Source: an uncultured Gammaproteobacteria bacterium
GTDB lineage: Bacteria; Patescibacteriota; Patescibacteriia; UBA2591; CAYTBZ01
NCBI GenBank assembly: GCA_964436275.1
Contig: CAYTBZ010000005.1
Location: 1-52,071 of the forward strand
Reading direction: 5' to 3'
Length of the DNA stretch: 52,071 nucleotides
Made by a program: the position numbers and the translations under genes. The notes under the pieces are model-generated. The model had not been told where the DNA came from. It was given only the letters and a program-made list of their open reading frames with translations, and ran no database searches. Below are positions 14,869 through 25,051 of this stretch, one piece after another (within the stretch, counting starts at the first letter, position 1; every line of letters begins with the position of its first letter).

Positions 14869-15777
14869 TTATTTTTCTCCACGATAAAATTTTGCTGCTT
14901 TTTCAGGAGAAATAGGATTAATAATTATTCCTGAACCAATCTCTACTCCTGCCCAAACCGATCCACGAGGAATAATTTTCATATAAAGATGCTGGTCCTC
15001 ATCATTTATAACTTGGTGAAAATAATAATTATAAGGCAAACCCAACTTTCTAACTTTTTTCAAAATTATTTTCAAAATTTTAGCAAAGGATTTAATCTCC
15101 TCTTTATTTAAATTAGAAATATTATCAACATGCCTTATAGGCATAATCCAGACCTCATAATTATGCATTGAAGCATAAGGACAAAAAGCAATTATATGTT
15201 TATCTTTATAAATTAGCCTACTACTTCTACTTTCTTTCTTAATAATATCACAATAAACACAACTTCCGTGTCTTAACATATATTCATGACACTTTTGAGA
15301 TTTATCAAAAACATGAGGAGGAATAAAGTCAGTAGCAAAAATTTGTGAATGAGAATGAGAAATAGAGGCACCAGCCGCTGCTCCACTATTCTTAAAAATC
15401 AAAATATAAGCAATTCTCTTATTCTTAGAAATCTCATAGGTCCTTTGAGCATAAACCTCTAACAATTTCCTAATATGCCTTTCGGGTAAATCCTCCAATT
15501 CTCTAAAATGGTTAGGCGTTTCAATCACTATCTCCTGAAGACCATATGCCTTTGGATTGTTTAAACTAACTGCTGGATAAATATTTTTAATAACTTTAAT
15601 TAGCCAGTTCTTTTCTGAGCCAACAGTAAGAATAGCCTTAACTTTATTCACTTTTTCCGGACAAAAAGCGCAAGGTGTCTTCTCTCCCCAACCTATTTGA
15701 TGAGGTCTCCGCGCTCTTTTAGGCGCAATAATAACATACTTATCTTGAATATAGTCCTTTCTCAATTCTGACATCAT
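14869..15777 (-). CDS. GalT-like (HIT superfamily) nucleotidyltransferase
   Basis: MSELRKD N-terminus, CAFC zinc motif, QEIVIETP, FKNSG...GASISHSHSQ (HxHxQ nucleophile motif), CVYCD. Confidence 0.85.
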   Translation of the reverse strand: MMSELRKDYIQDKYVIIAPKRARRPHQIGWGEKTPCAFCPEKVNKVKAILTVGSEKNWLIKVIKNIYPAVSLNNPKAYGLQEIVIETPNHFRELEDLPERHIRKLLEVYAQRTYEISKNKRIAYILIFKNSGAAAGASISHSHSQIFATDFIPPHVFDKSQKCHEYMLRHGSCVYCDIIKKESRSSRLIYKDKHIIAFCPYASMHNYEVWIMPIRHVDNISNLNKEEIKSFAKILKIILKKVRKLGLPYNYYFHQVINDEDQHLYMKIIPRGSVWAGVEIGSGIIINPISPEKAAKFYRGEK

Positions 15778-15788
15778 AAAGTTATTTA

Positions 15789-17228
15789 TTAATTATTAAA
15801 AAGTTTTTGATAAAGTTCTAAATATTTTTGAGCAGATTTAGACCAAGAAAAATCAGCTTTCATCGCTCTAATTTGCATCTTTTTCCATTTTTCTTTCTCT
15901 TGATAGAAAATTCTTACTGCTTTTTTAAACGACTTTAGAAAATCCTGAGGGTCATAATTTTCAAAAGTAAAACCTGTCTCTCCTTCAATGACTGTATCCT
16001 TTAACCCGCCAGTACTTCTAACCAGAGGTAAAGTCCCATAACGAAAAGCGATTAATTGACAAAGCCCGCAAGGTTCAAAACGAGAAGGCATTAACAAAAG
16101 ATCACTACCAGCATAAATTTTACGCGCTAATTTAGGGTCAAATTTAATTTGGGCAGATACAGAAAAAGGATATTTATCAGCCATTTCTCGAACTAATTTC
16201 TCATATTTTTGACTACCCTTTCCTAATATCACCAACTGAACTTTCTCCCTCATTATCTCATCAATTGCTGAGTAAATCAAGTCAACTCCTTTTTGAAAAG
16301 TTAAACGACCAATAAAACTAAGTAAAAGCATTTCCTTATCTAATGGAAGGCCAACTGTTTCTTGAAGGTCAATTTTGTTTTCTTTTTTTCTTTCTAAATT
16401 TTGCCAAGAATATCTTATTTTTATTTCCTTATCTGTCTGAGGGTTAAAATATTCTTTATCTATCCCATTAAGGATACCGTATAAATCATTTTTTCTCTTT
16501 CTTAGAACATTTTCTAAATTTTTGCCGAATTCTTTAGTTAAAATTTCTTGAGCATAGGTTGGGCTAACTGTATTAATTAAATCAGCATTTAAAATACCTT
16601 GTTGAAGTAAGTTTATATCTTTACCATAAGGGCCAATTGGCTGTTCTTTTAGAGTTGGCCAATCGTTTTCTTCTAATCCTAAAAAAGATAAGATTTCTTT
16701 TGCCCCCCATATTCCTTGATTGGCTAAGTTGTGAATGGTAAGCAATGTTTTTATCTTTTCTTTTCTGATTTTTATTAATAAAGGAATGACTGCTGTATGC
16801 CAATCATGACAATGAAGAATATCTGGTTGCCAATCAATATAAGAAAAAATTTCCAAAACAGCTTGAGAAAAGAAAAGAAATCTCTGTATCTCTCCCAAAG
16901 TATCGCAAAAGGCAGATTTGCTAAAATAAATCCCTCCTTGAGAAAGAAATTTTTTATTTTCCAAAAGATAAACAATAACTTTAGAAGAGGAAATTTCTCC
17001 TTGATAAAGATTGATTTTTTCTCCTGTTGGACTCAACTTTATTGGTATTCCTTTAAATAGCAATTTCGTCTTAAAGCCAGAATCTTTTATTGGTTGATAA
17101 TAGGGGATAGCAATGCGGATATCTTGACCCAATTTCTTTAATTCTTTAGGTAAAGAGCCAACTACATCGCCTAAACCGCCGACTTTGGCTAAAGGTGTAA
17201 GCTCTGAAGCAACAAAAAGTATTTTCAT
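15789..17228 (-). CDS. glgA: Glycogen/starch synthase (GT5), copy 2
   Basis: KVGGLGDV, HCHDWHT, TIHNLANQG, GILNGID, MPSRFEPCGL and TGGLKDTV motifs. Confidence 0.93.
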   Translation of the reverse strand: MKILFVASELTPLAKVGGLGDVVGSLPKELKKLGQDIRIAIPYYQPIKDSGFKTKLLFKGIPIKLSPTGEKINLYQGEISSSKVIVYLLENKKFLSQGGIYFSKSAFCDTLGEIQRFLFFSQAVLEIFSYIDWQPDILHCHDWHTAVIPLLIKIRKEKIKTLLTIHNLANQGIWGAKEILSFLGLEENDWPTLKEQPIGPYGKDINLLQQGILNADLINTVSPTYAQEILTKEFGKNLENVLRKRKNDLYGILNGIDKEYFNPQTDKEIKIRYSWQNLERKKENKIDLQETVGLPLDKEMLLLSFIGRLTFQKGVDLIYSAIDEIMREKVQLVILGKGSQKYEKLVREMADKYPFSVSAQIKFDPKLARKIYAGSDLLLMPSRFEPCGLCQLIAFRYGTLPLVRSTGGLKDTVIEGETGFTFENYDPQDFLKSFKKAVRIFYQEKEKWKKMQIRAMKADFSWSKSAQKYLELYQKLFNN

Positions 17229-17234
17229 TATTAT

Positions 17235-18137
17235 TTATTTAATTCTTAAAAATTTGTTTAATTCTTTAATACTAAAAGGAGGAAATTTTAAATAATCCCA
17301 AGGACTTCTAATAAAAAACCATTTATTAGGAAGTTCCCCGTGAAAATCAGAACCAATAGTAGGGAAAAGATTAAATTTATGGGCTACTTTTTGCCAATAA
17401 ATAATATCTGACCAACGATGATGAGAGGAAAGTACCTCTAAACCATCTAATCCTTTTCTCTTTAATTCTTTGATAACTCCTAAATCTTTCCAGGAAAGTT
17501 GCTGACTAGGATGGGCTAAAACCGCCTTTCCTCCTGCCTGATGAATGATTTTAATTGCCTTTCCTATCCCCACTTCGGCTTCTGGACAAATTAACCGACC
17601 TTTAATAAAAAAATACCGACCAATAACCTCAGTTAAAAGGATTGGTCTTTTTTTAAAATCTCTAACAACCCTTTTAAAATTTTCTTTAATCAGGGCCTCA
17701 GCCAGTTTATCTATACCCACATAAACAGCCGGAGTAGAAAAAACTTTTATTTCATCTATCTTCCACCCCTGCTTTCTTAAAATCTTAATACTCTTTTTTA
17801 TTATTTCTCTTTTTTTATTTTGTAAATCATTAAGGAGTTTATTTAATTTTTTATTTTTCGGATCAAAATTATAACCCAAAAGATGAAGATGGAATTTTTT
17901 GAAGAAAGTATAAATTTCCACTCCGGGAATATTTTTAAGACCAAATTTCTTAGCCCAATAATTCATCTCCTCAACCCCGTCTATTCCATTATGGTCGGTA
18001 AGGGAAATAATTTTTAAGCCCAATTTTTCTGCTTTTTTAGCCAATTCTTTGGGTGAATAAAGGCCATCAGAATAATAGGAATGGAAGTGTAAATCAATTA
18101 ATTTTTCTTTACTCATTTTATCAATTAATTTTACCAA
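17235..18137 (-). CDS. PHP-domain metal-dependent phosphoesterase (TrpH/YciV-like)
   Basis: DLHFHSYYSDG, LTDHN, GVEI, HLLGY, LAHP and GSDFHG motifs. Confidence 0.88.
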   Translation of the reverse strand: MVKLIDKMSKEKLIDLHFHSYYSDGLYSPKELAKKAEKLGLKIISLTDHNGIDGVEEMNYWAKKFGLKNIPGVEIYTFFKKFHLHLLGYNFDPKNKKLNKLLNDLQNKKREIIKKSIKILRKQGWKIDEIKVFSTPAVYVGIDKLAEALIKENFKRVVRDFKKRPILLTEVIGRYFFIKGRLICPEAEVGIGKAIKIIHQAGGKAVLAHPSQQLSWKDLGVIKELKRKGLDGLEVLSSHHRWSDIIYWQKVAHKFNLFPTIGSDFHGELPNKWFFIRSPWDYLKFPPFSIKELNKFLRIK

Positions 18138-19165
18138 TAATCTTGAGAAATTAATTTAAGTTTTTCAATAATTTTTCTTTTAGATTTCTTATTCTTCTCT
18201 AAGAAAATCAGGTTGGCTGTTATTTGAACTAAATTTCTTAAAGCAAAATATCTTATTTTTATTTTATCATCTTGATTGATTCCCTTTTTGAAATAACTAT
18301 CCAAAAACAATTGTTTTGCCTTTTGATAAAATCTTTTATGCTTTTTCCCTAAATAAAAAAGAGACATTGATTTCAATTGAACCAAAAAGCGGGCGATATC
18401 ATCAAAATAATCATAAAGATAGGCATCACTAAAATCAATTATTTTTATTTTTTTACCATTGCGCAAAAAATTTCCTAAATGAATATCTCCATGAGAGATA
18501 CCATATTCTTCAACTTTATCAAATAAATAAAAATTATTTCTTTTTATATAATTCATTCTTTTGAGAACCTTCTTTATAGGTAAAAGACCTGGGCGATAAT
18601 ACTTTTTTAAAAGATACAACCAATGCCGAATTTCTGAATTTTCTACATTTTTTGTTTTCAAAGGAAATTTAGTTTTATTGCTTATTGGCAAATGATGAAT
18701 TTTGTAAAGCAATTTAGCCATTGAGGGAACAAAATTCAAAATTATATCGGTCTCTCTTTTTTCTAAAAGAGTTTGAAAGCTTGTTCCTGGCACATTTTCA
18801 TAAAGAAGCAAATTATATTTTTCTAAATAATCCAATGGCTTAACCAAATATTTTTTAAATCCCTTCTGTCGGAGGTATTTAAGGAAGAGATAATGATTTC
18901 TTGGATTATCAAAAGCGCAATTTTTAGTCCTTTTCAATCTTCCCTGAATCGTCTTCTGGCGTTTTGAAGAATTAAATTTTATTTTTAATTTATACTCTAA
19001 AGATAAACTTTCATAATTAAGAAAATTCTTTCTTAACTTGATTTCAACCTCATCAACGGCTAATGCTTTTGGAAAATATCTCTTAATTCTTGAATTAAAA
19101 AATTTTTTCATAAATAAAGGGTTGAGAATTTGTTGAATTAGTTCTTTCTTTACTTGATTTCTCAT
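18131..19165 (-). CDS. APH/choline-kinase-fold phosphotransferase
   Basis: LLLYENVPG hinge region, HGDIHLGNFL catalytic loop, IIDFSDA metal-binding loop. Confidence 0.85.
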   Translation of the reverse strand: MRNQVKKELIQQILNPLFMKKFFNSRIKRYFPKALAVDEVEIKLRKNFLNYESLSLEYKLKIKFNSSKRQKTIQGRLKRTKNCAFDNPRNHYLFLKYLRQKGFKKYLVKPLDYLEKYNLLLYENVPGTSFQTLLEKRETDIILNFVPSMAKLLYKIHHLPISNKTKFPLKTKNVENSEIRHWLYLLKKYYRPGLLPIKKVLKRMNYIKRNNFYLFDKVEEYGISHGDIHLGNFLRNGKKIKIIDFSDAYLYDYFDDIARFLVQLKSMSLFYLGKKHKRFYQKAKQLFLDSYFKKGINQDDKIKIRYFALRNLVQITANLIFLEKNKKSKRKIIEKLKLISQDYW

Positions 19166-19166
19166 T

Positions 19167-21248
19167 TTATGAGGTTAAGAACCAAATTAATCTTTGAAGT
19201 AAAGCGTCTATTTTAGAAAGAATAATAATTAAAGGTTTTTTAAAATTAAATTTTATTTTCTTCTCTCGAGATAAATTATAGCCAGTAATCTTAAATTTAA
19301 ACAAAACTCCTTCCTTTGAGCAAGGAATTTCTACTTTCAATTGACCTTCCTTATCTTCTTTGAAAAAACGAGGAAGCCAGCCAAGCGTCTGGGAAACAAC
19401 AGCAACTTTTAAATATTTCCCTTTTAATTTATCTCTTTTCTTTAAATAATCCAATACCTTGGCTAATAAACTGTTCTTTTCGAAAATTATTTCTAATTTA
19501 TTTCCTTTTTTTAAGCGATAAGTCAGTTGACCAAAAGAATGTACTTTTTCTTTTTTATCAAACTCTATTTTAGAACAACTATTCCAGCCCTCTCTTAAAT
19601 AAAATTTAATCTCTTTTCCGGGAAACTCTGCTAGATAAAAATTATTATATTTATCCCAAAAAGCCCCTAAAGGATGAGATTGTTTATCTTTTTTGTCAAT
19701 AACTGCTTTAATTTTAGAAAAAAGAGTCAAAAATTGTTCTTCTTGAAATTTATCCTTATTAAAATCCTTAAAATAATTCTCTGCCAAAGGAGAAAATTCA
19801 TCTAAAGAATGCTCCCAAAATGATTTTAAGGAAGGAAGCGTCCTGCTTGCCCTTAAATCATCAATTATATGAAGAACATCATAAATATCAGTTCCTTGTT
19901 TTAACTTTTCTAAAGCATCGCGCCATTTTATCGCTTTTTCAAATTCTAAATTTGCTGCCGCTTTTTTCATCTCATCCTCCAATTCTAAGATAATTAAATT
20001 ATACCATTCTTTAGACACTCTTTCTTTAAAGGGCTTTTTGTTCTCTGTCCCTAATGCCTGACGATAGCGATGCCTAATAATTCCTTTCCTCTGCCAATCA
20101 AAAGCAATAGCCAAAATTTTTTGATAATACTCATTGGCTTTCTCTTTCTCTTTTAAAGAAGCATTAGGTAAAGCATTAACCACTTCTCTCAATTGATAAG
20201 CACCTTGTTCTATCATCTCTAAACTCCACCAAGGTTTTGCTGAAGCCCACCAAAACTGGTCTGATTGAAGCGACTTATCTAAAAGTTCCCTTGCCTTTCC
20301 TAAGGGCTGATTTTCCCTTTCTGCTTTTTCTACTAAATCAATTACAAAATAAGTAAAATCCCATTGAAGTTTATGAGTAGGATTAGAAGGATCCTGCCAA
20401 AGAAGGAAAGGAGAAAAAGTTCCCTGTTTTTTCTCCTTATCTAACCAGAAATCCTGTTCTTCAGACGACCAAGTAGATTCCCGGACTTCAATTTCTTCAT
20501 CAACGCTAAACTCTTCTACTAGTTCAGAAACTAATACATTCTTAAAAGGCGCTTCTTGATAAAGATTAAAAAGAAACTTCTCTAAACCAGGGCGATGGTG
20601 GCCAAAAGTTTCACCATCCATTACTGTCAGAAGATAACGGTTTTTTTTCAATTCTTCCCCTAATTCAGCCAAAAGTGATGCTTTGCTTCGTATTATTGCT
20701 GAAAGAATTAGAACACTAATTCTTTTATCACGAAAGACAATTTTTAAAGAGGGAATATTTTTAATTGAATAAATTTTCTGAAAATCAGGTTTTATTGAAG
20801 AAGCAAATTCTTCAGCCACTATCCACTGAAATCCTAACTGACTGACAAGATTGGCTAATTTGTAACTAAAAGCCAATTCAGGAGAAAAAAATCCTTTTGG
20901 CTGATAATTTTTGCCAAAGTATTTCTGACAAGTTTGATTATGCAAATTAATTTGTCTTTTAATCTCTTTCTCCGGAAGAAGGGGTAAAAAGGGATGATAC
21001 ATTGCGCTACCAGTAAGTTCTATTTGTCCTCTTCTAAGTAAATATCCAATATCATCAATAACATCATCATAGCCATTCTGCTCTAAAAGTTCTAACAATC
21101 CGCCATTAACATTCAAGGTCAATCTTGCTTTTTTGTTCTTTTTAAACCCATCTAAAAGAGGACGATAAGATTCATTAACTATTCTTTCCAAAATATCACT
21201 TTGCTGATTATGTGGTTGATAAATGTGAAGAAAATTCGCCCAACGCAT
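19167..21248 (-). CDS. Glycoside hydrolase family 57 protein with UVR motif and extra C-terminal domain
   Basis: FLHIYQP, ELTGSAMYHPFLPL, FFSPE (nucleophile Glu), MDGETFGHH (acid/base Asp), SDQFWW; ELEDEMKKAAANLEFEKAIKWRD is a UVR-like motif. Confidence 0.85.
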   Translation of the reverse strand: MRWANFLHIYQPHNQQSDILERIVNESYRPLLDGFKKNKKARLTLNVNGGLLELLEQNGYDDVIDDIGYLLRRGQIELTGSAMYHPFLPLLPEKEIKRQINLHNQTCQKYFGKNYQPKGFFSPELAFSYKLANLVSQLGFQWIVAEEFASSIKPDFQKIYSIKNIPSLKIVFRDKRISVLILSAIIRSKASLLAELGEELKKNRYLLTVMDGETFGHHRPGLEKFLFNLYQEAPFKNVLVSELVEEFSVDEEIEVRESTWSSEEQDFWLDKEKKQGTFSPFLLWQDPSNPTHKLQWDFTYFVIDLVEKAERENQPLGKARELLDKSLQSDQFWWASAKPWWSLEMIEQGAYQLREVVNALPNASLKEKEKANEYYQKILAIAFDWQRKGIIRHRYRQALGTENKKPFKERVSKEWYNLIILELEDEMKKAAANLEFEKAIKWRDALEKLKQGTDIYDVLHIIDDLRASRTLPSLKSFWEHSLDEFSPLAENYFKDFNKDKFQEEQFLTLFSKIKAVIDKKDKQSHPLGAFWDKYNNFYLAEFPGKEIKFYLREGWNSCSKIEFDKKEKVHSFGQLTYRLKKGNKLEIIFEKNSLLAKVLDYLKKRDKLKGKYLKVAVVSQTLGWLPRFFKEDKEGQLKVEIPCSKEGVLFKFKITGYNLSREKKIKFNFKKPLIIILSKIDALLQRLIWFLTS

Positions 21249-21252
21249 AGAT

Positions 21253-22446
21253 TTAAAAGAAATACTGATTAACTTTTTTATTTTTTTTATAGACCTGTCT
21301 TATTTTTCTAAATTTTTTTGATTTATCCCATTCTCTCAACAATTCTTTAATTTTATGAGATAAATTTATCACTTTTTTCTTATCTTTTAAAGGGATTGAT
21401 TTTGAACTAAAAACAATTTTTTCTAAACCATTTAAATAATCCTCAACAAAACCCGGATACCACCAAGGCATTGCTGAAGCCCACCAAAAAGGATCACTAT
21501 TAAGATATTTATCTAATTGTTCACGCCCGTTTTTAGAAGGATACTTTTTTATCAATCTCAAAACTAAATAGAGTAACTTCCACAAATAATAATGAATCAT
21601 ATTGCCCGGATAATTCCAAAGAGCATAAGGAATGTTTTCTTCAAGCTCATTCTCTTTTGAAGACCAAGAGGAGGGAAAAGGTTCAATTATTTGAGGTCTT
21701 GATGGTAAAATTTTCAAAAGTTCAGAATAAAATTTTGTCTCTGTTTTCTTGGCTATTCTTTGCCAAACTTTAGCCATTCCTTTATGGTGATGACCTAGAT
21801 TTTCTCCGTCCATAGCCGTCAAAATATATTTTTTACATCTCTTATCTTTACTTACTGAGCGGAAAAATTTTTTTGCTGAATTAAGCCAAGAACTTAAGAA
21901 TAAGTCAGAAAGAAAACGATTTCTAAAAAAAACTTTTAAATTTGTTCCCTTAATTTGATAAAGTTTGTCAAAAGAAACTAAGCCAAACTTTTTTTGATAA
22001 GCAATCTCATCAAGAATAATCCATTGATAGCCCAATTTATCAATTATTTTAGCTAATTTTTGGCTATAAGCCATTTCTGGGGGGAAAAAGCCCCTTGGTT
22101 GATAGATTTTACCAAAATATTTTCGATTAACTAAATAATTGAGTTTAATCTGACGGATAATTTCATCCTCAGGCAATAATGGTAAGAAAGAATGAAATTT
22201 AGCGCTTCCTAATAACTCTATTTGATTCCTTTTGGCCAAAAACCTTATTTTCTGAATTATTCTTTTATATCCGTTTTTTATTAAAAGTTCGGTTAAACTT
22301 CCGCTGATATTAAGAGAAATTTTTATCTGTTTATTATTTTCTAAAATAAAAAAAATTTTTTGATAACTCTCTCTAACTACTTTATCTAAAATCTTCTTTT
22401 TTTGATTTGCTGGCTGATAAATATGTAAAAGATTAGCCCAAACCAT
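21253..22446 (-). CDS. Glycoside hydrolase family 57 protein (short paralog)
   Basis: LLHIYQP, ELLGSAKFHSFLPL, FFPPE, MDGENLGHH and SDPFWW motifs. Confidence 0.85.
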   Translation of the reverse strand: MVWANLLHIYQPANQKKKILDKVVRESYQKIFFILENNKQIKISLNISGSLTELLIKNGYKRIIQKIRFLAKRNQIELLGSAKFHSFLPLLPEDEIIRQIKLNYLVNRKYFGKIYQPRGFFPPEMAYSQKLAKIIDKLGYQWIILDEIAYQKKFGLVSFDKLYQIKGTNLKVFFRNRFLSDLFLSSWLNSAKKFFRSVSKDKRCKKYILTAMDGENLGHHHKGMAKVWQRIAKKTETKFYSELLKILPSRPQIIEPFPSSWSSKENELEENIPYALWNYPGNMIHYYLWKLLYLVLRLIKKYPSKNGREQLDKYLNSDPFWWASAMPWWYPGFVEDYLNGLEKIVFSSKSIPLKDKKKVINLSHKIKELLREWDKSKKFRKIRQVYKKNKKVNQYFF

Positions 22447-22456
22447 TTAATAATAA

Positions 22457-23935
22457 TTAATGCTGATTGTTCTTCATTTTTAAAGCCCGGCGATAAAGAA
22501 GTAAGTATTTTTTAGTAGGTAAATTCCAAGAAAATGACTCCTTCATTGCCTGCCAAGTCAATTTTCCCCAAACTTGAGGATATTTATAAGTTTCCACAGC
22601 CCGAGTAATGGCTACCAAGAGATCAGCTGGTTCATAAGTTTTAAAAACAAATCCATTTCCTCTTCCTGTGCGTGGATTAAAATCAGAAATTGTATCTGAA
22701 AGTCCTCCAGTCTCATGAACAATAGGAATAGAACCGTAACGCAAACTTTTTAATTGTGAAATTCCACAAGGTTCAAAACGAGAAGGCATTAAGTACATAT
22801 CTGAACCAGCAAAAACCTTTCTCTCCATTTCTTCAGAAAAAGGATTAATAAAAGCAATTTTAGAAGGATATTTACGACTTATTTTTTTAAAAAAATCAAC
22901 GTATTCTTTTTGTCCACTGCCAACAATAACTAACTCTAAATTTTGTCTTAAAAGAGGTTTAATTATCTCTTTAATCAATTCAAATCCTTTTTGTTCGGTT
23001 AAACGACTGGTTAAACCAAGAATAGGTATATTTTTATCTACTTCTAAATTTAATTCCTTTTGTAAAGCCAATTTATTCTTTATTTTCTTATCTAAAGAAT
23101 TTTGATCATAATTATAGTAAATATATTTATCAAAAAGGGGATTAAAAACGCTATAATCAATCCCGTTTATTATTCCAAAAACACGTTCCTTTCTTTTGCG
23201 TAAAAGCCCATCTAATTCTTGACCAAATTCTGGGGTAAGAATTTCTTTAGCATGACGTTCAGAAACAGTATTAATAACATCAGCAAAACGAATTCCTCTT
23301 TTCATAAAATTTATTCTTTCAATTTTGTCTTTATCTTGAGGAGGCAAATTTTTTCCGTCGTCCCTTTCCTCTAACGGAATTTTCCACCAACTATGCCCCA
23401 ACTGAAAACTAATGTTATGAATTGTATAAACAATGGCTGTTTGATTAAAAAGAGGATTCTCTTTTTCGTTTAATTTTAGATAATTGGGGATTAGACCTGT
23501 CTGCCAATCATGACAATGAATTATGTTTGGTTCAAAATTCAACAATTTTAATAATTCTATAGAAGCCAAATCAAAGAGCATAAAACGAAGATTATCATTA
23601 GGATATCCATATAACTTGGAATGGCAGCCAAATAATTTATATTGGTCAACAAAATAAACAGGTAAATCTTTGATTAATTCACTTTTAAAAAAACGACAAA
23701 GATATTTTTCTCCAGCAACAGAAAGAGGAATTTCTGAATCAACTAATTCGGCTTTAATTTCGCCTTTATTTATTTTTTCTCGAATAAATCCATATAGAGG
23801 AGTAATAATAATCACTTGGTGACCCAATTTAACTAAATGAGTAGTTAAGGCGCTAACCACATCGGCCAAACCACCAGTTTTAGAAAAAGGGGCTACTTCA
23901 GAAGCAATATGAACAATTTTTAAATGACGAGACAT
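22457..23935 (-). CDS. glgA: Glycogen/starch synthase (GT5), copy 1
   Basis: KTGGLADV, HCHDWQT, TIHNI, GIINGID, MPSRFEPCGI and TGGLSDTI motifs. Confidence 0.93.
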   Translation of the reverse strand: MSRHLKIVHIASEVAPFSKTGGLADVVSALTTHLVKLGHQVIIITPLYGFIREKINKGEIKAELVDSEIPLSVAGEKYLCRFFKSELIKDLPVYFVDQYKLFGCHSKLYGYPNDNLRFMLFDLASIELLKLLNFEPNIIHCHDWQTGLIPNYLKLNEKENPLFNQTAIVYTIHNISFQLGHSWWKIPLEERDDGKNLPPQDKDKIERINFMKRGIRFADVINTVSERHAKEILTPEFGQELDGLLRKRKERVFGIINGIDYSVFNPLFDKYIYYNYDQNSLDKKIKNKLALQKELNLEVDKNIPILGLTSRLTEQKGFELIKEIIKPLLRQNLELVIVGSGQKEYVDFFKKISRKYPSKIAFINPFSEEMERKVFAGSDMYLMPSRFEPCGISQLKSLRYGSIPIVHETGGLSDTISDFNPRTGRGNGFVFKTYEPADLLVAITRAVETYKYPQVWGKLTWQAMKESFSWNLPTKKYLLLYRRALKMKNNQH

Positions 23936-23941
23936 AATAAA

Positions 23942-25051
23942 TTAAATAACTTTTAGAAATCGGCTGCTTAGAATAAACATTGCTTCAGACCAACAAAGAG
24001 GATAAATCCCTTGACGAAAATCATCAAAAATTTGTTCAGGTAAATATCCTTTATATTTATCCGCCTTTCTAACCACCCAAAGGTAATATTTCCAAGCCCT
24101 TTTCTTGTTTCCTCTTAAAACCCAATAAATACTCATCCAAAAATTTAAGGCTGGCCAAGCACCCCCTCCTTCCCAAGCTGAACCCTCACTGTCAAAATAA
24201 TCATACTCATAACGATGAACACCGCCTTTTATTACTATTCTTTTTTCCATCATTTCTATTGTCTTTTTTATTCTCAAATCATCTGCTGGATAAATTTCAA
24301 ATGGCCAAACTAGACCCAAAAGAGAAGCGTCTATATTTTTATCATCTATTCTTCCGTGGTTACGATAAAAATATCCGTCTTTTTCTGAATACGCCTCATC
24401 AATTTTGGAAATCATTTGTAGAGCGGTTTCTTTCCATACTTTTTTAGCAATAATTTCATAGGCACAAAGAAGTCCTCGGGCACAAGCAGCCAAAGAGTAA
24501 GTAAAATTATTTTGCATTGTTGTTGAGGTCTGACGACTTGTTTCTTCCCAAAGGTCAACAGTGTGTCGCAAAAAATATTTTCCTCCCCAAACCTCTACTA
24601 ATCCATTAGCTAACCTTTCTATTAATTCCTGAAATTTAAGAGCCCTTTTTAAATCTTTTTTAAAGTACTTATAATAATGGTGAATAGTATAAAGAGTAAT
24701 ACCCATTTGGTCTGGTTGAAATGCCTTGCCCATACTACCAAATTGTCCGTTGGTAGAATAATTAGCAAAAAGAAGTTTTTCTCTTTTAAAATCACGCGGC
24801 CTTTCTTCTAACCATTTAAAAAATGGTTCCTGAATCTCCATCTTTAAAATCTCTCCGGCTAAACAAGTAAAGCAAGCATCTCTTGGCCAAACCCAGCGGT
24901 AATTAAAGGCCTCACGAGGATAATAAGGTTTATCTGTATTAGCAGCAACAATAGCGCCATTCTCCAAAACACAATCTTTAATTACCTCCTTAGCCCTTTT
25001 AATCATCTTTTTTATTTTTGCTTTTAAGGTAGGAGAAAGTTGATTAAACAT
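23942..25051 (-). CDS. GH15-like glucoamylase/six-hairpin glycosidase
   Basis: YRWVWPRD, DLWEE (general acid region), DASLLGL and YLPEQ (general base region) motifs. Confidence 0.8.
   Translation of the reverse strand: MFNQLSPTLKAKIKKMIKRAKEVIKDCVLENGAIVAANTDKPYYPREAFNYRWVWPRDACFTCLAGEILKMEIQEPFFKWLEERPRDFKREKLLFANYSTNGQFGSMGKAFQPDQMGITLYTIHHYYKYFKKDLKRALKFQELIERLANGLVEVWGGKYFLRHTVDLWEETSRQTSTTMQNNFTYSLAACARGLLCAYEIIAKKVWKETALQMISKIDEAYSEKDGYFYRNHGRIDDKNIDASLLGLVWPFEIYPADDLRIKKTIEMMEKRIVIKGGVHRYEYDYFDSEGSAWEGGGAWPALNFWMSIYWVLRGNKKRAWKYYLWVVRKADKYKGYLPEQIFDDFRQGIYPLCWSEAMFILSSRFLKVI

Follow-up and report, generated by a model that had tools for sequence, protein, structure and literature searches.

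The DNA examined here, referred to throughout as the window, is a stretch of 52,071 nucleotides (contig CAYTBZ010000005.1 of assembly GCA_964436275.1, positions 1 to 52,071 of the forward strand) from an uncultured, ultra-small bacterium that is deposited as a member of the Gammaproteobacteria and placed by GTDB in the Patescibacteriota. On the minus strand, at 19167..21248 (stop codon included), the list of open reading frames (ORFs) and their translations gives a gene for a protein of 693 residues, here named GH57b, in which a glycoside hydrolase family 57 (GH57) enzyme is joined to a UVR helical hairpin, a conserved segment and a long tail; all residue numbers below refer to this product. 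UVR motifs are found in UvrB, UvrC, ClpC and McsA, and the C-terminal domain of UvrB pairs with itself and with the homologous domain of UvrC. Homologues of GH57b form more than 2000 clusters, the majority of which combine GH57 and UVR.

The identity of the catalytic part, which a first-pass annotation of this DNA had already recognized as GH57, is well supported. The Pfam model PF03065 matches residues 12-251 with an expectation value (E) of 5.6e-34 and 118.2 bits, far above its curated cut-off of 21.2, and both catalytic residues are present. The barrel region, delimited by PF03065, by profile alignment to the structure 1K1W and by Foldseek, spans residues 1-260 (20469..21248, minus strand). 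A profile of 44 homologues finds its best solved-structure match in the 4-alpha-glucanotransferase of Thermococcus litoralis (TLGT; E 2.4e-14), and in the profile alignment the residues E123 and D214 of TLGT (1K1W) fall on E124 of GH57b (GFFSPELAF; codon at 20877-20879, minus strand) and D211 (VMDGETFGHH; codon at 20616-20618, minus strand), both of which are invariant across the 44 homologues. In GH57 enzymes, the nucleophilic glutamate belongs to conserved sequence region 3 (CSR-3) and the proton-donating aspartate to CSR-4. GH57b is predicted to be a cytoplasmic, catalytically competent alpha-glucan enzyme, with Glu124 as nucleophile and Asp211 as acid/base.

The full-length AlphaFold2 model (mean predicted local distance difference test score, pLDDT, 86.3; predicted template modelling score, pTM, 0.66) resembles GH57 structures only. 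Its top Foldseek match is 1k1x (E 8.7e-18); branching enzymes, amylopullulanases and AmyC come next, the GH57 matches spanning E 9e-18 to 1e-9, and the predicted model has the (beta/alpha)7 barrel and subsequent helical bundle typical of GH57. The helical domain, delimited by the predicted helices and by invariant tryptophans, covers residues 290-400 (20049..20381, minus strand) and includes the CSR-5-like motif SDQFWWASAKPWWSLE. Its helices are placed at 290-311, 318-326, 343-359, 365-387 and 390-398, and W333, W334, W340 and W341 are invariant in the alignment of 44 sequences. Compared by eye, the CSR-5-like motif (SDQFWWASA, residues 330-338, window 20235-20261) closes on two tryptophans, which carries no specificity call here; a two-tryptophan CSR-5 ending has been described as the amylopullulanase-type signature of the family (PMC6037648).

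GH57b thus shares with TLGT (1K1W/1K1X) the (beta/alpha)7 barrel, the helical domain, the nucleophilic glutamate and the acid/base aspartate, and its core is likewise similar to those of the branching enzymes 3N8T, 5WU7 and 1UFA, the amylopullulanases 7E1Y and 9JLR and AmyC (2B5D); unlike GH57b, none of these solved enzymes was seen to have a UVR hairpin. By sequence and predicted fold, its nearest solved relatives are the 4-alpha-glucanotransferase, the branching enzymes and amylopullulanase. Since identity to solved GH57 enzymes is only 13-19%, and the NCBIfam branching-enzyme models cover only about 60 residues, GH57b represents an uncharacterised GH57 lineage.

Directly downstream of the helical domain lies the hairpin, placed at residues 413-450 (19899..20012, minus strand) by the Pfam match, the AlphaFold2 model, its identity to UvrB and its conservation. 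The first-pass annotation had proposed a UVR motif at about 19903-19990, and the Pfam search agrees: PF02151 matches residues 420-451 (E 5.8e-9, 35.9 bits against a gathering cut-off of 21.5), a six-frame search of the genome places the match at 19896-19991 on the minus strand with 40.4 bits, and the scores across searches were 35.9, 38.2 and 40.4 bits. The UvrB and UvrC models of NCBIfam match the same 30-50 residues of GH57b and nothing else. The helical hairpin expected of such a motif is also predicted by AlphaFold2, with helices at 413-432 and 436-450 separated by a short turn.

A query of 98 residues, which took in the hairpin and the 43 residues after it, was run against 401 genomes of the phylum. 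It retrieved GH57b-type genes in roughly two dozen genomes (frames of 494-529 residues), together with about 40 weaker matches to the hairpin alone in frames of 650-730 residues. One of the weaker matches, L024, was checked and proved to be a 711-residue UvrB (983 bits against a cut-off of 743); it was taken in place of L023, a presumed UvrB locus in another genome that has no long ORF. Over 35 residues, the C-terminal UVR of this same-phylum UvrB and the GH57b hairpin are 54% identical (E 8e-12), and the two share the motif EMKKAA.NLEFE.A...RD....L and a predicted hairpin structure. This identity to a verified UvrB UVR marks the GH57b hairpin, on sequence grounds, as a true homologue of the C-terminal pairing domain of UvrB. 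The hairpin was probably captured from UvrB inside the phylum, domain capture being the simplest explanation. It differs from its UvrB counterpart in sitting on a glucan enzyme, in being followed by a conserved segment rather than by the protein end, in having a family-specific invariant tryptophan (W442) and in belonging to a host genome with neither UvrB nor any other UVR.

Conservation points to the hairpin as the part of GH57b under the strongest constraint. Nine of its positions (E437, A439, K441, W442, R443, D444, A445, K448 and L449) are invariant across the 44 homologues, and among 35 sequences of the long, tail-bearing class of homologues the mean majority-residue frequency of the hairpin, 0.83, is the highest of any region, compared with 0.75 for the catalytic barrel. 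As an alternative to protein contacts, the hairpin could have an intramolecular role only, bracing the structure of the GH57 helical domain. This explanation gains from the position of the hairpin straight after the helical domain, from its pLDDT of 72-88 in the monomer model and from Foldseek alignments to GH57 branching enzymes of about 530 columns, which may include the C-terminal helices of those enzymes themselves. The clear homology to a pairing domain argues against it, however, as does the fact that nearly every hairpin position, and not one buried face alone, is more conserved than the active-site barrel. Moreover, the neighbouring paralog GH57a (21253..22446, minus strand; 397 residues, GH57 being its only Pfam domain) folds without a hairpin. 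As the first-pass annotation had stated, this paralog lacks both UVR and tail: it is 41% identical to GH57b over 391 residues, in an alignment that stops at residue 387 of GH57b. We therefore regard a purely internal brace as rather improbable.

A second alternative is suggested by the other known carriers of UVR motifs: the hairpin might tag or link GH57b to a Clp-type proteolysis or adaptor system of the ClpC/McsA kind, or to the repair proteins UvrB and UvrC. The occurrence of UVR in all four of those proteins would favour such a link, as would the presence of a ClpP in the genome (58% identical to E. coli ClpP) and the very similar UVR of UvrB in many other genomes of the phylum. The contents of the source genome (658 kb in 22 contigs, with a completeness estimate of 100%) speak against it, for the GH57b hairpin is the sole match in a six-frame search with PF02151. 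No UvrB was found in the genome, the best match of the UvrB model being the same hairpin, and neither ClpC nor a UVR-bearing McsA was found, the only Hsp100-type ATPase being ClpB (1296 bits against a cut-off of 1232) and the ClpX-like matches weak. Since there is one UVR, no UvrB and only ClpB as Hsp100, UVR-UVR contact with UvrB, UvrC, ClpC or McsA is excluded here. The proteolysis-adaptor function offered by the first-pass annotation is accordingly not borne out, and the Clp or Uvr connection as a whole is very improbable. It may be added that nucleotide-excision repair seems to be absent from this genome, which has no UvrB, though many genomes of the phylum have one.

The roles left for the hairpin are self-pairing, docking to a partner without UVR, or the purely intramolecular function discussed above. 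By analogy with UvrB, the first two are the likeliest: the hairpin would pair two GH57b molecules, as its counterpart does in UvrB, or else dock GH57b on a partner that has no UVR, for instance GH57a or GlgA. Pairing or docking is favoured by the conservation at almost every hairpin position, by the ability of GH57a to fold without the hairpin and by the character of the adjoining segment, which is nearly as conserved yet contains an invariant loop predicted with low confidence. A scaffold or protein-contact module, the other half of the first-pass proposal, is therefore the best reading of the UVR motif.

The adjoining post-UVR segment (GTDIYDVLHIIDDLRASRTLPSLKSFWEH..., residues 452-493, 19770..19895, minus strand) is present in homologues both with and without the tail. 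Its regional conservation of 0.78 is close to that of the hairpin, and D454, D457, H460, L465, R469, P472, K475 and S486 are invariant in the 44 sequences. Within it, the loop at residues 463-472 (window 19833-19862) has a pLDDT below 50 and is predicted to be disordered, even as L465, R469, P472 and K475, which are invariant in both homologue classes, fill or flank it. It resembles a short linear motif for docking, or a stretch that becomes ordered upon binding, and the whole segment of some 40 residues, with its invariant and predicted-flexible loop, may constitute a second contact element.

The remainder of the protein, residues 494-693 (about 200 residues), is termed the tail and was modelled separately with AlphaFold2, giving a confident prediction (pLDDT 91.6, pTM 0.80). 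The predicted fold opens with a helix of 22 residues, after which come seven strands, a helix of 12 residues, four more strands and, at the end, an amphipathic helix of 23 residues. The long linker helix that opens the tail lies at residues 498-519 (19692..19757, minus strand), as predicted in the full-length model and, as helix 5-26, in the tail model. The core, an unclassified domain that is beta-rich in the AlphaFold2 model, occupies residues 525-655 (19284..19676, minus strand), with its internal helix at residues 594-605. The first-pass annotation had described a beta-rich tail starting at HPLGAFWDKYNNFYLAEF (residue 525, from window position 19676 downwards), and this description stands, the model giving 11 strands, the internal helix and the terminal helix. 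Invariant residues of the core are P526, G528, P543, I547, Q574, Y577, W624 and F629; the additional 160-250 residues of the long class as a whole show 44% column identity and nine invariant residues.

The amphipathic helix at the C-terminus (residues 670-692, 19173..19241, minus strand; AlphaFold2 helix 670-692) occurs only in a subset of the long class of about 700 residues, and was seen in the aligned sequences P0003, P0004, P0006, P0016, P0017, P0019, P0035 and P0045. Its hydrophobic moment is 0.45-0.49 and its mean hydrophobicity 0.13-0.30. The consensus reads ..ILGKLD.LIKK.IW..RG, and the subset does not form a single clade on a midpoint-rooted tree. Possibly the helix is ancestral and was lost later in some members; it could be a granule-seeking or membrane-seeking element. 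As modelled, then, the tail would begin with a linker helix and continue into a compact beta-rich domain, for which no relatives were detected; some members would also carry the amphipathic helix at the end.

Whether this domain belongs to a known family was addressed by sequence, profile and fold comparison. No consistent Pfam or NCBIfam family was found for the tail, alone or together with 30 homologous tails; the tail profile matched no PDB sequence at E<=10, and Foldseek of the tail model against the PDB and BFVD returned no match at E<=1e-3. A C-terminal beta domain of the TLGT type was considered and rejected, a second stretch of profile similarity scoring -2.9 bits and the fold search giving no match.

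The affiliation that the first-pass annotation had proposed, CBM48, deserves closer attention. The tail might be a highly diverged CBM48 (E-set) glycogen-binding module that tethers the enzyme to glycogen. CBM48 domains (PF02922, of the type found in GlgX, GlgB, TreZ and AMPK-beta) are, like the tail, beta-rich accessory modules on alpha-glucan enzymes, and there are weak local hints of similarity in structure and profile. Among the non-significant Foldseek matches of the tail model, the best probabilities (0.69-0.80, with E 0.36-0.57 and 66-85 columns) belong to proteins that bear a CBM48, namely 3vgd (TreZ), 8bf3, 8bbp and 6rzn, with 80-85 columns and a root-mean-square deviation of 4.1-4.4, and 6ne9, with 66 columns. 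Many other non-significant, low-ranking matches are to beta-sandwich accessory domains of carbohydrate enzymes. When the tail was compared by hhalign with a CBM48 alignment built from five sequences (E. coli GlgX and GlgB and three from Patescibacteria), KVAVV..GW..FFK..LKVEIP..FKFKI at residues 614-655 was set on the CBM48 core V.V..F..W....W..iP..G..YKY with E 0.011. The genome, moreover, is otherwise devoid of CBM48, none having been found anywhere in its 658 kb by a six-frame Pfam search.

Other results speak against this affiliation. The Pfam CBM_48 model matches neither the GH57b tail nor any of the 30 tails, even at E<=10, and so gives no backing to the first-pass call; the hhalign probability is 3.7%, in an alignment that leaves out the HPLG motif on which that call was based; and Foldseek finds no match at E<=1e-3 in spite of a model with a pLDDT of 92. 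Typical CBM48 domains are all-beta and about 85-100 residues long. The tail core is larger, with 130 residues, 11 strands and a 12-residue helix against the 83 positions of the CBM_48 model. The tail also stands at the C-terminus, whereas CBM48 is N-terminal, and has an inserted helix as well as flanking helices. With no significant match in sequence, profile or fold, CBM48 membership is not supported and the diverged-CBM48 explanation is unlikely; the tail may still be a distant relative of beta-sandwich domains and may bind glucan.

The resemblance to the start of GlgX (PLGAxxDGxGVNF) that had suggested CBM48 is real in its letters, HPLGAFWD..NFYL being present, but the likeness does not rise above chance. 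Alignment of the stretch with the E. coli GlgX N-terminus (PLGAHYDGQGVNFTL) covers 16 columns with a probability of 0.1% and E 0.55, and the lead was dropped. The same HPLG stretch resembles a single blade of an NHL-repeat protein equally well. Tail positions 26-65 (HPLGAFWDKYNNFYLAEFPGKEIKFYL...GW, window 19584-19703) draw in dozens of NHL-repeat beta-propeller proteins, whose whole-protein E-values reach 1e-18 only through the summing of up to 11 repeats of one 40-residue motif. A beta-propeller of the NHL type was likewise rejected for the tail, which contains one copy of the motif, no internal repeat and, in 30 tails, no NHL Pfam match. The HPLG stretch is a generic beta-hairpin motif and not a family signature.

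Homologues of GH57b fall into two classes, short (about 465-570 residues) and long (642-742 residues), the former ending 2-23 residues past the post-UVR segment. The short-class proteins of other Patescibacteria (about 500 residues), which the NCBI pipeline names 'UvrB/UvrC motif-containing protein', belong to the same family and have the UVR, the post-UVR segment and the GlgA-GH57a-GH57b synteny. They lack the tail, whereas GH57b belongs to a single clade that added 160-250 residues. In a tree of the shared region (residues 1-493, 120 sequences), all 55 long-class proteins fall in one clade with a support of 0.996, the sole intruder being a sequence of 573 residues that is probably truncated. 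Within the order to which this genome belongs, 30 of 55 genomes (16 of 34 genera) have the tail, always in frames of 609-726 residues except for one of 198 that lies where a contig ends; a sample of 400 further genomes from across the phylum showed none. Thirty-two genomes of the order have GH57b, two of them, both of one genus, in the short form. Against 1.84 billion representative proteins, the tail profile retrieved only this family, with four representatives below 1e-30 of which the short ones are fragment-like, and no stand-alone homologue of the tail. No paralog of the tail was found in the genome, and an internal duplication was looked for with no signal. Taken together, the tree and the genome survey indicate a single gain of the tail at the base of the order, and the tail appears from the models to be a confidently folded, lineage-restricted new domain with no detectable relatives. 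In each of two relatives, L014 (G413:C1) and G449:C3:5891-6388, the GH57b-tail frame is interrupted by a single in-frame TAA, which could reflect a pseudogene, a sequencing error or recoding.

GH57b is the fourth gene of an eight-gene glucan operon, transcribed from the minus strand between window positions 14869 and 25051 with near-zero spacing. Besides GH57a, the neighbours were assigned by Pfam, and all lie on the minus strand. In order, the operon comprises a GH15-like gene (23942-25051), GlgA (22457-23935), GH57a, GH57b, an APH-fold kinase (18131-19165), a PHP phosphoesterase (17235-18137), a second GlgA (15789-17228) and a GalT/HIT-like enzyme (14869-15777). Four nucleotides separate the GH57a stop from the GH57b start, and one separates the GH57b stop codon from the kinase ATG, while the PHP start and the APH end overlap by 7 nucleotides. 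The order GlgA-GH57a-GH57b is kept in distant relatives, where either APH and PHP or a second GlgA comes next, and the whole is, as judged from this synteny, a conserved Patescibacteria storage-glucan operon.

Searches of the 658-kb genome with E. coli proteins (tblastn) found two GlgA and no GlgB, GlgX or GlgP; the GlgC query gave only a weak nucleotidyltransferase match on contig C8. With GlgB, GlgX and GlgP missing and no clear GlgC, the chain-remodelling steps must fall to the two GH57 paralogs. CBM48 is rare in the phylum as sampled (3 of 151 genomes, all of one family-level group), a rarity from which it follows that most Patescibacteria with the operon lack branching and debranching enzymes of the GH13 type.

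Three features point to an accessory module that binds the glucan particle: the tail is attached to an enzyme that acts on glucan, it is rich in beta structure, and it has two invariant tryptophans in loops, W555 and W624. By analogy with such modules, this would be the likeliest role of the tail, binding of a protein partner being less likely. Combined with the preceding results, a coherent picture emerges that we consider probable, though by no means certain: GH57b would be a competent GH57 enzyme of a storage-glucan operon, equipped with a UvrB-derived pairing or docking hairpin, a post-UVR contact element and a tail serving as an accessory binding module. We infer oligomerisation or docking from the first two of these additions and glucan binding from the third. 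Several points weigh against this picture. The reaction of GH57b may be any of transfer, branching or hydrolysis; the pTM of 0.66 of the monomer model leaves the inter-domain geometry loose; the tail is dispensable for the core job of the enzyme, as relatives in other orders lack it; and glucan binding by the tail is argued by analogy, with no known CBM family matching.

A bolder extension, which we regard as doubtful, is that the tail founds a new alpha-glucan-binding (CBM) family and, with the hairpin and the loop, assembles a GlgA-GH57a-GH57b glucan-building complex on the storage granule. If this were true, a complex specific to the Patescibacteria would replace the missing GH13 branching and debranching enzymes.

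The GH57-UVR architecture itself is already known in the sense that it is visible in automatic annotation and common in Patescibacteria. A literature search found no paper describing a GH57-UVR fusion, and UVR is unmentioned in an in silico survey of GH57 (PMC6037648) and in a review of alpha-glucans (PMC11046441). What is new here is the exclusion of a UVR partner in a genome that lacks UvrB, the direct homology of the hairpin to the UVR of a same-phylum UvrB and the definition of the tail as a single-origin, order-restricted domain with no detectable relatives. The first-pass annotation was thus largely right in what it observed and partly supported in what it made of it.

Many Patescibacteria, despite their minimal genomes, retain a glucan operon. 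Within it, GH57b illustrates neatly the capture of a domain from UvrB, and since its repair-type pairing hairpin is better conserved than its active site, assembly seems to be important to the enzyme. The tail would add a further layer in a single order: binding of glucan would make it a new CBM family, and binding of a protein would suggest a lineage-specific complex.

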